A stretch of 64,000 nt of DNA from Escherichia phage ZCEC14: the sequence record OP168898.1. One strand, given 5' to 3'. Both the position numbers and the translations under genes were made by a program. Positions 22,650-42,717 of this stretch are shown piece after piece. The notes beneath the pieces were generated by a model. The model did no database searches and had not been told where the DNA came from. It saw only the letters and a program-made list of their open reading frames with translations. Position 1 is the first letter of the stretch. Every line of letters begins with the position of its first letter.

Positions 22650-24463
22650 CAATTGAAAAAGAAATTGAAGGATTGATTCATAAAACTAATAAAGACCTTT
22701 TAAACGAGAATGCTAATAAAGATTCTCGTGTTTTTCCAACTCAACGGGACCTTATGGCTGGTATTGTGTCTAAACACATTGCCAAAAATATGGTCCCGTC
22801 TTTTATTATGAAAGCGCATGAAAGCGGAATTATTCATTTCCACGATATTGATTATTCCCCTGCTCTTCCATTTACTAATTGCTGTTTAGTAGATTTAAAA
22901 GGAATGCTTGAGAACGGATTTAAGCTAGGTAATGCACAGATTGAAACTCCTAAATCAATTGGCGTTGCTACTGCAATTATGGCACAAATTACTGCACAGG
23001 TTGCTTCTCACCAATATGGCGGAACGACTTTTGCGAATGTAGATAAAGTACTTTCTCCTTATGTTAAACGCACCTATGCAAAACATATTGAGGATGCAGA
23101 AAAATGGCAAATCACTGATGCGTTGAATTATGCTCAATCTAAAACAGAAAAAGACGTATACGATGCATTCCAAGCTTATGAATATGAAGTAAATACTCTC
23201 TTTAGTTCAAACGGACAAACGCCTTTTGTAACAATTACATTTGGTACGGGAACTGACTGGACTGAACGAATGATTCAGAAAGCAATTCTGAAAAATCGTA
23301 TTAAAGGTCTTGGTCGTGATGGGATAACTCCTATTTTCCCTAAGCTTGTTATGTTCGTTGAAGAAGGTGTTAATCTTTATAAAGACGATCCGAACTATGA
23401 TATTAAGCAGCTTGCTCTAGAGTGTGCAAGCAAAAGGATGTATCCTGATATTATTTCAGCTAAGAACAATAAAGCTATCACTGGTTCATCTGTTCCTGTT
23501 TCTCCAATGGGTTGCCGTAGTTTCTTGAGCGTATGGAAAGATTCGACTGGCAATGAAATTCTTGATGGACGTAATAATCTTGGTGTTGTAACATTGAATC
23601 TTCCTCGCATCGCGTTAGATTCTTATATTGGAACACAGTTCAATGAACAGAAATTTGTTGAATTGTTCAATGAACGAATGGATTTATGTTTTGAAGCTTT
23701 GATGTGTAGAATTAGTTCCTTAAAAGGAGTTAAAGCTACTGTTGCTCCTATTCTTTACCAAGAAGGTGCATTCGGGGTTCGTCTTAAACCTGATGACGAT
23801 ATAATTGAGTTATTTAAAAACGGTAGAAGTTCAGTGTCTTTAGGATACATTGGTATTCACGAATTGAATATTCTTGTCGGTCGTGATATTGGACAGGAAA
23901 TTTTAACTAAAATGAATGCTCATCTTAAACAGTGGACTGAAAGAACCGGATTTGCTTTTAGTTTATATTCGACTCCTGCTGAAAACCTTTGTTATCGCTT
24001 CTGTAAACTTGATACAGAAAAATATGGAAGCGTAAAAGATGTTACCGATAAAGGCTGGTACACTAACAGTTTCCATGTTTCAGTAGAAGAAAATATTACT
24101 CCGTTTGAAAAAATTTCTCGTGAAGCGCCATATCATTTCATTGCGACAGGTGGTCACATTTCTTATGTTGAACTTCCTGATATGAAAAACAATTTAAAAG
24201 GTCTTGAGGCTGTATGGGATTATGCTGCACAACATTTAGATTATTTTGGTGTTAATATGCCAGTAGATAAATGTTTTACATGTGGAAGTACCCATGAAAT
24301 GACTCCTACTGAAAACGGATTTGTTTGTTCTATTTGTGAAGAAACTGATCCTAAAAAGATGAATACTATAAGAAGAACATGTGGTTATTTGGGAAATCCG
24401 AACGAACGCGGATTTAATCTCGGTAAAAATAAAGAAATCATGCATAGGGTTAAGCACCAATGA
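22646..24463 (+). CDS. nrdD: anaerobic ribonucleoside-triphosphate reductase (class III)
   Basis: 605 aa uninterrupted ORF; C-terminal glycyl-radical region RRTCGYLG; no intron. Confidence 0.95.
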   Translation: MTIEKEIEGLIHKTNKDLLNENANKDSRVFPTQRDLMAGIVSKHIAKNMVPSFIMKAHESGIIHFHDIDYSPALPFTNCCLVDLKGMLENGFKLGNAQIETPKSIGVATAIMAQITAQVASHQYGGTTFANVDKVLSPYVKRTYAKHIEDAEKWQITDALNYAQSKTEKDVYDAFQAYEYEVNTLFSSNGQTPFVTITFGTGTDWTERMIQKAILKNRIKGLGRDGITPIFPKLVMFVEEGVNLYKDDPNYDIKQLALECASKRMYPDIISAKNNKAITGSSVPVSPMGCRSFLSVWKDSTGNEILDGRNNLGVVTLNLPRIALDSYIGTQFNEQKFVELFNERMDLCFEALMCRISSLKGVKATVAPILYQEGAFGVRLKPDDDIIELFKNGRSSVSLGYIGIHELNILVGRDIGQEILTKMNAHLKQWTERTGFAFSLYSTPAENLCYRFCKLDTEKYGSVKDVTDKGWYTNSFHVSVEENITPFEKISREAPYHFIATGGHISYVELPDMKNNLKGLEAVWDYAAQHLDYFGVNMPVDKCFTCGSTHEMTPTENGFVCSICEETDPKKMNTIRRTCGYLGNPNERGFNLGKNKEIMHRVKHQ

Positions 24464-24930
24464 ATTATGATAGATTTTATCCTTGCGATTTTGTGAATGG
24501 CCCTGGTTGCAGGGTCGTTCTTTTCGTTACAGGTTGTTTGCATAAATGTGAAGGGTGTTATAATAAATCAACATGGAATGCTAGAAATGGTATTCCATTC
24601 ACTGGTGAAACACTAGAACAATTGATTGAATGTTTGAATAATGATTATATAGAAGGATTAACTATAACTGGAGGAGACCCTCTCTATCCTGACAATCGAG
24701 ATGTTATTCATTGCATTGTTCAAACAGTAAAAAATCTTTATCCCAATAAAAGCATTTGGTTGTGGACAGGATATAAGTTTGAAGATATTAAACAACTAGA
24801 AATGCTTAAATATGTTGATGTTATTATTGATGGGAAGTATGAGAAAAATCTTCCGACTAAAAAGCTGTGGCGAGGATCAGATAATCAGCGACTTTGGTCA
24901 AATACCGATGGGGTGTGGAAACATGATTAA
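24460..24930 (+). CDS. nrdG: anaerobic RNR activating enzyme (radical SAM)
   Basis: 156 aa; CLHKCEGCYN cluster motif; ATGA overlap with nrdD. Confidence 0.9.
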   Translation: MNYDRFYPCDFVNGPGCRVVLFVTGCLHKCEGCYNKSTWNARNGIPFTGETLEQLIECLNNDYIEGLTITGGDPLYPDNRDVIHCIVQTVKNLYPNKSIWLWTGYKFEDIKQLEMLKYVDVIIDGKYEKNLPTKKLWRGSDNQRLWSNTDGVWKHD

Positions 24931-25048
24931 ATTGAATTATATTATGGATACTATAAATGATATGATTTTTCATTTTGGTCCAGAATTTTATTCGCAGTAT
25001 AGTTTAGTGCTTATCAATGCTTGGTTAATTAATTAAAGGTAAAGGTAA

Positions 25049-25264
25049 ATGTATAAATTTCGTAAAGGTTTAGCTGATTTTCTTACAACTGTAACATTCT
25101 TTCTGTTTATGGCAGTTGGAGCTATTTTCCTTATTCCTTTTATTGCTATATTTTTCGTGATTAGTTTGATTTCTCCAGAAAAGGGCTTATCTTCTAGTGA
25201 ATTCAATGAGCGTCTGGATAAAATTACTAACAAGCTGAATGCTGTTCTTGATAAAAAGGCTTAA
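25049..25264 (+). CDS. hypothetical small membrane protein
   Basis: 71 aa; one long hydrophobic segment. Confidence 0.45.
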   Translation: MYKFRKGLADFLTTVTFFLFMAVGAIFLIPFIAIFFVISLISPEKGLSSSEFNERLDKITNKLNAVLDKKA

Positions 25265-25266
25265 TT

Positions 25267-25578
25267 ATGATTAGTTTTGAGCGGTATGTGGTAGAGAGTT
25301 GGAATGGTTTTGATATGTTCGGTAATGACTATTATTTCTATGAATGTAGTCTAAATCCTAGTTTTTGGGCCGGACGTGAACGAGAACTCGAAGAAATTAA
25401 TAATCGTGCTGAATTGTTAGGTGAATTACCTACGGTTTATTTTACCTTTGATGCATCTGGATTTGTTATCCAGGTTTATTTTCCTGAAGAAAATTCTGGC
25501 GATGATTCTGTTAACCCGCCATATTGGGCTTATCAAGGAATTATTTCTCGTGGAACAAAACTCGAACTTAAAGAATAA
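25267..25578 (+). CDS. hypothetical protein
   Basis: 103 aa; stop abuts the glutaredoxin-like domain in the +1 frame. Confidence 0.45.
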   Translation: MISFERYVVESWNGFDMFGNDYYFYECSLNPSFWAGRERELEEINNRAELLGELPTVYFTFDASGFVIQVYFPEENSGDDSVNPPYWAYQGIISRGTKLELKE

Positions 25579-25873
25579 GATTGAAGTCTATGGAATTCCA
25601 GATGAAGTAGGTCGTTGTCCTGGATGTCAATCAGTTACAAAACTTCTAAAGGAGCTCAATGCTCCTTTTACTTTCTATAAAGTTCTTACAAATAATGGTA
25701 AGATTGAGTATGATCGTCCACTGATTGTATCTCTTGCTAAACGCGCTGGATTCACATCTCTTAGTATTCGTTATCCAGTCATTTTCATCAATGATTCTAG
25801 ACAAAAGAACATTAAACACTTCAAAGAAACTCTCATTTCACTTGGATATGATAGAGATATCATAGAAGATTAA
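25550..25873 (+). CDS. glutaredoxin-like protein (NrdH-like), start codon uncertain
   Basis: KIEVYGIPDEVGRCPGCQ redoxin domain; no ATG after upstream stop; candidates GTG 25550, ATG 25502, ATG 25451. Confidence 0.5.
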   Translation: MEQNSNLKNKIEVYGIPDEVGRCPGCQSVTKLLKELNAPFTFYKVLTNNGKIEYDRPLIVSLAKRAGFTSLSIRYPVIFINDSRQKNIKHFKETLISLGYDRDIIED

Positions 25874-25877
25874 GACG

Positions 25878-25897
25878 GGCCCTCTGGGCCTTTCTTT
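25878..25897 (+). terminator. intrinsic terminator
   Basis: GGCCC-TCT-GGGCC followed by TTTCTTTCT. Confidence 0.55.
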
Positions 25898-25971: not shown

Positions 25972-26001
25972 GTTTACAACAAGTTCAAACCGTGGTATTA
26001 T
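25972..26001 (+). promoter_or_regulatory. T4-type early promoter
   Basis: GTTTAC 25972-25977, -10 TATTAT 25996-26001. Confidence 0.65.
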
Positions 26002-26031: not shown

Positions 26032-26208
26032 ATGGTTGATAAAGAGATTAAAATTGACCAGTATTATCGTGTTAACGGACATATCGTTATTGTTACAGCA
26101 GTCGATGATTTAGATGTTCATTATACTGCGATTAAATGGAACAAACGTATGATTTGTGATCGTGCTGTATTTAGTTCAGTTGCTAAGGAAATTAAACTCC
26201 ATGGGTAA
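26032..26208 (+). CDS. hypothetical small protein (not in ORF track)
   Basis: 58 aa from ATG 26032 with SD GAGGA. Confidence 0.4.
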   Translation: MVDKEIKIDQYYRVNGHIVIVTAVDDLDVHYTAIKWNKRMICDRAVFSSVAKEIKLHG

Positions 26209-41137: not shown

Positions 41138-41878
41138 ATGATTAGTGACTCTATGACAGTTGAAGAAATCCGTCTTCATTTGGGGCTTGCATTAAAAGAA
41201 AAAGATTTCGTAGTTGATAAAACTGGTGTCAAAACTATTGAAATTATTGGCGCATCATTTGTAGCAGATGAACCGTTTATTTTTGGCGCTCTTAATGATG
41301 AATACATTCAGCGTGAACTTGAATGGTATAAATCTAAAAGCTTGTTCGTTAAAGATATTCCGGGTGAAACACCGAAGATTTGGCAACAAGTAGCATCTTC
41401 TAAAGGTGAAATTAACTCGAATTATGGTTGGGCTATCTGGTCAGAAGATAACTATGCCCAGTATGATATGTGTTTAGCTGAACTTGGTCAAAATCCTGAT
41501 TCTCGGCGCGGTATCATGATTTATACTCGTCCATCTATGCAGTTTGACTACAATAAAGATGGTATGTCAGATTTCATGTGTACTAATACAGTACAGTACT
41601 TGATTCGTGATAAGAAAGTCAATGCAGTAGTAAGCATGCGCTCAAATGACGTGGTCTTCGGATTCCGTAATGATTATGCATGGCAAAAATACGTATTAGA
41701 TAAATTAGTATCTGATTTGAATGCAGGCGATTCAACTCGTCAGTATAAAGCAGGTTCTATTATATGGAATGTTGGAAGTCTTCATGTATATTCTCGTCAT
41801 TTTTACTTGGTTGATCATTGGTGGAATACTGGCGAAACTCATATTGTGAAAAAAGACTATAAAGGTGAGTGGAAATGA
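41138..41878 (+). CDS. 42: dCMP hydroxymethylase gp42
   Basis: 246 aa; thymidylate-synthase-like fold; matches T4 gp42. Confidence 0.95.
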   Translation: MISDSMTVEEIRLHLGLALKEKDFVVDKTGVKTIEIIGASFVADEPFIFGALNDEYIQRELEWYKSKSLFVKDIPGETPKIWQQVASSKGEINSNYGWAIWSEDNYAQYDMCLAELGQNPDSRRGIMIYTRPSMQFDYNKDGMSDFMCTNTVQYLIRDKKVNAVVSMRSNDVVFGFRNDYAWQKYVLDKLVSDLNAGDSTRQYKAGSIIWNVGSLHVYSRHFYLVDHWWNTGETHIVKKDYKGEWK

Positions 41879-42717
41879 TTCAATTCGTAATTCCGAGCTA
41901 TCAACGTGTAGGGGCAGTTTCTGCCCTTGATATGTTTCCGACTGATTATGAACCGCATATTGTAGTACGTGAACATGAAGAAAAAGCTTATTACGATGCC
42001 TATGGGTCTAGAGCTAAAATTATAACTATTCCTGATGATGTAAATGGAATTGCTGGAACTCGTAAAGCAATTACTGATATGTATGCAGGTCAACGAATCT
42101 GGATGATTGACGATGATACTACTATTCGTATGAGTTCAATGCGAAAAAGAGATGATCGTCGTTGCGTAGATAAAGTCAATCAATTGACTCGTGAACAGTT
42201 CTATGAATTGATTCAATATGTTGAGGATGCCATGGATTGCGGGTATTATCATGGCCATGCTCGTCTACCTATTTTTAAAATTACTTCATCTTGGGGTAAT
42301 TATCGTGAAAATTCATATGGATTCACGAATACATGGTATGACCTCGGAAAACTTACGACAGAACAAATTGGGTATGGAAAAATTGATTTATGTGAAGATA
42401 TGTATGCATTTCTCAATTTAATTAATCAAGGTTATCCGCATTTGGCCTTGTTCAAATATCTAGTTGTATCTGGAAAAGCACAAGCTCCTGGCGGATGCAG
42501 TTCAATTCGTAGTAATTCTAAACATAATAGAGCGCTTGAGCAAATCAATAGAGAGTTTCCAGATCAAGCTCGTTGGAAAACTTCTAATATTGAAAAACGA
42601 AAATCGTTGGGTGAAGAAGATGAACCACTAAAGGTTCTTCGTATGTGTGTTTCGCGTAAAGAAAAATCAGAAGCATTTCATAAGTTTAATGCTATTCATC
42701 CAATAGCAGTTGATTAA
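41875..42717 (+). CDS. putative GT-A glycosyltransferase in the beta-gt position (beta-alpha-gt-like)
   Basis: 280 aa from ATG 41875; DDD motif (WMIDDDTT); unlike T4 beta-gt. Confidence 0.5.
   Translation: MIQFVIPSYQRVGAVSALDMFPTDYEPHIVVREHEEKAYYDAYGSRAKIITIPDDVNGIAGTRKAITDMYAGQRIWMIDDDTTIRMSSMRKRDDRRCVDKVNQLTREQFYELIQYVEDAMDCGYYHGHARLPIFKITSSWGNYRENSYGFTNTWYDLGKLTTEQIGYGKIDLCEDMYAFLNLINQGYPHLALFKYLVVSGKAQAPGGCSSIRSNSKHNRALEQINREFPDQARWKTSNIEKRKSLGEEDEPLKVLRMCVSRKEKSEAFHKFNAIHPIAVD

Follow-up and report, generated by a model that had tools for sequence, protein, structure and literature searches.

Where does translation of the glutaredoxin-like gene nrdH begin in Escherichia phage ZCEC14? 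In the stretch of DNA analysed here (the window: 64,000 nucleotides of sequence record OP168898.1, from a T4-like phage of the Tequatrovirus group), the redoxin domain opens with the AAG codon at 25577 that encodes the K of KIEVYG, exactly where the upstream open reading frame, ORF103, reaches its TAA stop (25576-25578). The two frames differ by +1, and there is no ATG between that stop and the domain. The original prediction, made from the letters alone, had described this junction, and all of its coordinates were confirmed; its one inaccuracy was the statement that the domain has no canonical start. GTG is a standard start codon in bacteria and phages, and a GTG preceded by a Shine-Dalgarno (SD) sequence lies at 25550, inside the end of ORF103. 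Sequence comparisons strongly suggest that nrdH is an ordinary SD-dependent gene initiated at GTG 25550 and overlapping ORF103 by 29 nt, an assignment in which our confidence is high. Overlapping, GTG-initiated nrdH genes are already known, being annotated in reference phages, and no new biology is implied by this start.

Layout of the locus and identity of its products

The features on which the argument draws are as follows, all on the + strand.

24460-24930, +: nrdG (Fer4_12/Radical_SAM)
25049-25264, +: 55.8 homologue, a 71-aa predicted membrane protein (phrog_1930, E=2.7e-36), directly 5' of ORF103
25267-25578, +: ORF103, 103 aa, of the RB69ORF082c / phrog_2749 family (phrog_2749, E=1e-48)
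25535-25539, +: nrdH SD, AAGGA, exactly 10 nt 5' of the GTG and within the ORF103 codons Q-G
25550-25552, +: nrdH start codon GTG, homologue of the GTG from which T4 and T6 nrdH are annotated
25550-25873, +: nrdH coding sequence, 107 aa (MEQNSNLKNKIEVYGIPDEVGRCPGCQ...), T4-type glutaredoxin/thioredoxin fold with a CPGC active site
25550-25578, +: overlap of nrdH with the 3' end of ORF103, 29 nt, nrdH in the +1 frame
25877-25891, +: intrinsic terminator hairpin (GGGCCCTCTGGGCC and a T-run), 3 nt past the nrdH stop
25973-26001, +: T4 early-promoter-like site from a sequence scan, TTTACA-N17-TATTAT with TG

Over the surrounding 1.1 kb, identity to Escherichia phage vB_EcoM_G8 is 97%, and 674 phage records contain a match. 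The homologue of 55.8 carries that name in RB14 and RB51, and its counterpart in the uncultured lineage L029 matches the Pfam family Phage_T4_Y04H. The terminator has a fold energy of -15.9 kcal/mol (z = -4.7 against shuffles) and is also annotated after nrdH in ASO78A and PhAPEC2. The promoter-like site, whose equivalent the ASO78A record lists as an early promoter, begins the next transcription unit, with a 55.6 homologue at 26032. Further terminator-like hairpins lie inside coding sequence, in nrdH (AAAGGAGCTCAATGCTCCTTT, 25648-25668) and in ORF103 (ATCTGGATTTGTTATCCAGGT, 25455-25475); these two are probably chance matches of a simple scan, which returned 4 sites against 0.9 expected. A short ORF overlapping the end of nrdG (24923-25036) corresponds to the 37-aa 'gp55.9 / RB32ORF074c' of T6, RB51 and CT01; T4 has the same DNA, and NC_000866 annotates no CDS there.

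The open stretch of the redoxin frame spans 25421-25873, and its in-frame start candidates are GTG 25421, TTG 25448, ATG 25451, ATG 25502 and GTG 25550, the last being the sole candidate conserved in all lineages examined. The longer starts yield hydrophobic products that are an out-of-frame read of ORF103 (MHLDLLSRFIFLKKILAMILL...). From GTG 25550, the start region reads AAGGAATtatttctcGTGgAACAAAA...TAAGATTGAAGTC (in its longer form, AAGGAATtatttctcGTGgAACAAAAc...TAAGATTGAAGTC) and encodes the N-terminal peptide (M)EQNSNLKNKIEVYGIPDEVGR, in which a tail of nine residues, MEQNSNLKN, precedes the first beta-strand, KIEVYG. At 5 nt the SD is short, and its distance from the GTG is 10 nt, as opposed to 6 nt in T4. 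RNA folds around the start regions of the window, T4 and VR25 did not stand out from shuffled controls (z -0.6 to +1.7) and so provide no hint of regulatory structure.

The product matches PHROG 22, 'thioredoxin domain' (E=8.7e-16), and scores 22.5 bits (E=1.4e-4) against Pfam Glutaredoxin (PF00462), for which the gathering threshold is 22.9 bits. Against T4 glutaredoxin (PDB 1ABA, E=6e-4), its CPGC is aligned with the CxxC that follows the first beta-strand, and residue 3 of 1ABA falls on residue 12 of the 107-aa product, so that the fold requires no N-terminal extension. Identity to the T4 and T6 proteins is 99% over 98 aa (tblastn), and for the core it reaches 99-100% with T4 and with many other phages. 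NrdH is carried by 1,351 phage records. Synteny also matches T4-type NrdH, in the order nrdG, (55.9), 55.8, [ORF103], nrdH, terminator, 55.6. By sequence, synteny and start architecture, the gene is thus assigned as T4-type nrdH, and the GenBank notes for T4 and T6 nrdH read 'has glutaredoxin activity' (an annotation, for glutathione-dependent disulfide reduction). With bacterial NrdH-redoxin the phage protein shares a name, and orthology is not demonstrable at the sequence level, because no NCBIfam family, GlrX_NrdH included, matched it at E <= 0.01.

ORF103 occurs in 526 phage records and, in every locus examined, across at least five Tevenvirinae genera, it stands between 55.8 and nrdH; this tight linkage in sequence hints at a related role. 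Sequence searches of Pfam, NCBIfam and PDB gave no match for it. AF2 models it as an alpha/beta fold (pLDDT 80.8, but under 50 at residues 96-98 and 100-103), and a structure search with this model returned no convincing structural neighbour. Judged from these models, the overlap is cheap at the protein level: it combines a short N-terminal tail of NrdH, absent altogether from T4 glutaredoxin, with a mostly low-confidence C-terminal end of ORF103. One ORF103 variant, in the Logan assembly P0002, has a frameshifted C-terminus (…YQGNYFSWNKTQT) that places a third frame over the nrdH start region (window 25540-25578); it represents natural variation or else an indel introduced in assembly.

Conservation of the SD-GTG start across lineages

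For comparison of the starts, the junction was extracted from 25 related loci. Tequatrovirus was covered by the window, G8, ASO78A, RB14, RB51, CT01 and the ORF103-bearing IMG/VR contigs L005-L007, L011 and L012; the other loci bearing ORF103 were those of PhAPEC2 (Mosigvirus), VR25 (Gaprivervirus), IME08 and ABTNLsp5 (Dhakavirus), CIP9 and Kosakonia phage 305 (Kanagawavirus), and the uncultured lineages L029 and L032. In every ORF103-bearing lineage, a GTG precedes the IE[VI]YG codons by 21-30 nt and is itself preceded, at exactly 10 nt, by AAGGA, AAGGAG or AAGGTGG; this SD-N10-GTG module is kept even though ORF103 identity falls to 37-64% across lineages. Stops in the nrdH frame occur upstream of the GTG at 6 nt in VR25, 30 nt in IME08, 42 nt in L032 and 45 nt in both CT01 and L029; VR25, IME08, CT01 and L029 have no canonical nrdH start other than the GTG. 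Within Tequatrovirus, the 29-nt overlap is identical in sequence at all loci examined.

The residues that follow the GTG are likewise kept in the nrdH frame (E/D/G-Q-N/K...K-I-E), as MEQNS.., MGQNS.., MDQKL.., MENQS.. or MDQNK, and as MKQNK in T4; Karamvirus PG7 has an ATG at the homologous codon and reads MENSQL where CIP9 reads (V)ENQSL. Beneath the GTG, the ORF103 codon is CGT (Arg) or TGT (Cys), with xGT-G always kept; CGT is a commonly used arginine codon in T-even phages, so conservation of the T in xGT is by itself weak evidence for the GTG start. The uncultured lineage L029 bridges the window and T4 forms in that it combines ORF103 and AAGGA-N10-GTG with a T4-length N-terminus, VDQNKIEIYG. 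The more distant Jiaoda-, Gelderland-, Pseudoteven- and Lazarusvirus loci start with ATG and have upstream overlaps of 4-41 nt, and the distant genera that use ATG place 1-3 residues before the first strand (8 in Karamvirus PG7).

The original prediction had suggested comparison with nrdH of T4, T2 and T6: a homologous GTG start was found there, and ORF103 is absent. T4 nrdH (41805-42113, minus strand) is annotated as 102 aa from a GTG (taaggaatagttGTGaaacaaaataagattgaagtc; also aaggaatagttGTGaaacaaaataagATTGAAGTC), giving MKQNKIEVYG, and its start region, AAGGAATagttGTGaAACAAAATAAGATTGAAGTC, is visibly homologous to that of the window. Both T4 and T6 nrdH are annotated from this homologous GTG (AAGGAAT..GTG.AA CAA AA), and an in-frame TAA 9 nt 5' of it leaves the GTG as the only canonical nrdH start there. 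T2 has the T4-type junction at 100% identity.

A census found the 70-nt junction of the window type in 418 phage records, with an identity of >=99% in 164, as opposed to 211 records, including T2 and T4, for the T4-type junction (>=80% query coverage), which makes the ORF103-less form the minority. The arrangement in T4, T2 and T6 is probably derived, ORF103 having been lost by deletion while the SD-GTG module was retained, since Shigella phage CT01 has an independent partial deletion with that module intact. In CT01 (L020, 412-675), an in-frame deletion, independent of that in T4, T2 and T6, joins 55.8 to the final 24 ORF103 codons as an 87-aa chimera.

Initiation at GTG 25550 would involve the binding of 30S subunits to AAGGA at 25535-39, within the coding region of ORF103. 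Ribosomes finishing ORF103, 26 nt downstream, may hold this site unfolded or feed reinitiation, which would amount to translational coupling, and the weak GTG would keep NrdH output modest. The weak codon persists in T4, T2 and T6, where ORF103 no longer constrains it. A stronger version of the same idea, that SD-N10-GTG is kept in the ORF103 3' end of at least five Tevenvirinae genera as a regulatory design, with NrdH synthesis obligatorily coupled to, or throttled by, ORF103 translation and both proteins acting jointly in anaerobic ribonucleotide reduction, appears unlikely.

Alternatives to the GTG start and conflicting annotations

Several other origins of the NrdH N-terminus can be envisioned. 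One is a long-extension protein started deep inside ORF103, at ATG 25451 or TTG 25448 (141-142 aa) or at ATG 25502 (124 aa). In its favour, the open stretch of the frame reaches back to 25421, every ORF103-bearing Tequatrovirus and Mosigvirus locus has ATG 25451, and such starts are annotated in ASO78A and PhAPEC2. The same frame, however, is closed by the stops that lie 6-45 nt 5' of the GTG in VR25, IME08, L029, L032 and CT01 and by the TAA in T4 and T6; ATG 25502 is missing from G8, ASO78A, RB14, RB51 and PhAPEC2; ATG 25451 arises incidentally where ORF103 encodes a conserved F-D (TTT GAT G); neither ATG has an SD; and the extension, a hydrophobic out-of-frame read of ORF103 (for example, LLSRFIFLK), has no counterpart in any NrdH or in T4 glutaredoxin. 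We consider these starts very improbable, and the doubt that the original prediction had expressed about the long hydrophobic extensions was well placed, given the in-frame stops in related phages. Comparably improbable is non-canonical initiation at the domain boundary, by reinitiation after TAA 25576-78 at ATT 25580 or at a near-cognate codon close by. ATT 25580 is 2 nt past the ORF103 stop, termination-reinitiation is common in T4-type phages, and Jiaodavirus phiA85 has an ATG immediately before IEIYG that overlaps the upstream stop (ATGA). Against this stand the rarity and inefficiency of AUU initiation, the availability of a conserved, SD-equipped GTG 27 nt 5' of the domain boundary (25577), which renders a non-canonical start unnecessary, and the codons between GTG and domain, whose conservation as protein (E/D-Q-N...K) across genera and in T4 would be left unexplained.

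The remaining alternatives are weaker still. Programmed +1 frameshifting of ribosomes at the 3' end of ORF103, yielding an ORF103-NrdH fusion of ~200 aa, would account for the +1 relation of the frames and for a domain that begins exactly at the stop, and such shifting can be promoted by a stop codon occupying the A site, as it is in prfB. The features of a prfB-type shift, namely a conserved shift-prone P-site codon and an upstream SD-like stimulator, were not found at the compared junctions: the last sense codons are GAA (window), GAC (VR25), AAC (IME08), GAT (CIP9, L029 and PhAPEC2) and TAT (L032), which are not conserved and none of which can re-pair after a shift to the +1 frame, and no SD-like stimulator lies just 5' of the ORF103 stop. 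Moreover, nrdH with the same GTG stands alone in the ORF103-less T4, T2 and T6, CT01 retains only the fused 24-codon remnant of ORF103, and a frameshift would make the conserved SD-GTG unnecessary; the fusion is accordingly given very little credence. Least credible of all is an artefact or a decayed gene, whether through sequencing error or a recent start-codon mutation, for which nothing speaks beyond the missing ATG. The conservation of SD-GTG and the census of independent phage records (418) exclude both: the GTG is common to all ORF103-bearing lineages examined and to T4 and T6, with the T2 junction identical to that of T4, and the NrdH core has the 99-100% identity to T4 and many other phages given above. 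Initiation at GTG 25550 thus fared best among the possibilities that the original prediction had listed, being supported, with its upstream AAGGA and its overlap, by homology to T4 and T6 and by conservation across lineages, whereas the frameshift fusion, start-codon mutation, sequence error and non-canonical initiation were not borne out.

Public records are inconsistent on this start. GenBank/RefSeq entries annotate nrdH from this GTG in RB14, RB51, G8, VR25, IME08, ABTNLsp5, CIP9, Kosakonia 305 and CT01, and overlaps with the upstream gene, as given by record annotation, are 29 nt in RB14, RB51, G8 and CT01, 20 nt in VR25, IME08 and ABTNLsp5, and 26 nt in CIP9 and Kosakonia 305; gene overlaps of 16-32 nt are common in neighbouring T4 annotation. 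A longer nrdH is annotated from TTG 25448 in ASO78A and from the ATG equivalent to 25451 in PhAPEC2, start choices that the in-frame stops in other genera show to be wrong; on this comparison, the long hydrophobic leaders are artefacts of gene callers picking the longest ORF. Over the interval equivalent to window 25448-25873, MZ726795 and NC_024794 illustrate how near-identical phages conflict on the start (GTG, 107 aa, versus TTG/ATG, ~141 aa), and many records of near-identical phages label nrdH 'hypothetical protein'. The matter is mainly one of annotation quality: inconsistent nrdH starts in public phage records are worth correcting, and, where T4 serves as the annotation template, it is relevant that the T4, T2 and T6 arrangement is the minority form and probably derived by deletion of ORF103.

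Comparison with known systems

The original prediction had looked to reference phages with the same arrangement and an annotated, experimentally supported start. The annotation exists, in RB14, RB51 and G8; on the experimental side there is a protein class for T4, and we found no direct data in the literature from N-terminal sequencing or initiation-site profiling of NrdH in any T-even phage. In a supplementary table of PMC9697503, T4 nrdH is listed with the protein-level temporal class 'late' and the RNA class 'early', and 55.8 has no protein class in that table; a protein-level entry for a gene with GTG as its only canonical start implies, as far as this table goes, that T4 nrdH yields detectable protein.

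The closest parallels are RB14, RB51 and vB_EcoM_G8, in which 55.8, ORF103 (RB14ncORF074c in RB14, RB51ncORF079c in RB51) and then nrdH from the same GTG follow one another with the 29-nt overlap of the window. They share ~97% DNA identity with it; ORF103 carries a few substitutions and NrdH a single one, at residue 72 of 107 (S versus N). T4 nrdH (T4p072, NP_049686, 102 aa; formerly ORF 55.7/Y04G) resembles that of the window in its GTG preceded by AAGGAAT, in the same downstream terminator and in the same neighbours, nrdG, 55.8 and 55.6. By contrast, T4, T2 and T6 are without ORF103, so that nrdH directly follows 55.8 with no overlap; their SD-GTG spacing is the shorter one, 6 nt rather than 10 nt, and their NrdH tail is five residues shorter (MKQNK versus MEQNSNLKNK).

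Among solved structures, the closest by sequence to NrdH is T4 glutaredoxin / 'thioredoxin' NrdC (PDB 1ABA, 1AAZ), whose fold begins right after the initiator methionine and which has its CxxC in the same place. Sequence similarity between the two is low, the active site being CVYC in NrdC and CPGC in NrdH, and NrdH, unlike NrdC, has a ~20-residue C-terminal extension together with its short N-terminal tail. Bacterial NrdH-redoxin, exemplified by E. coli NrdH, is, like the phage protein, a small CxxC redoxin encoded beside ribonucleotide reductase genes, but those genes are of class Ib, whereas phage nrdH adjoins the class III genes nrdD/nrdG.
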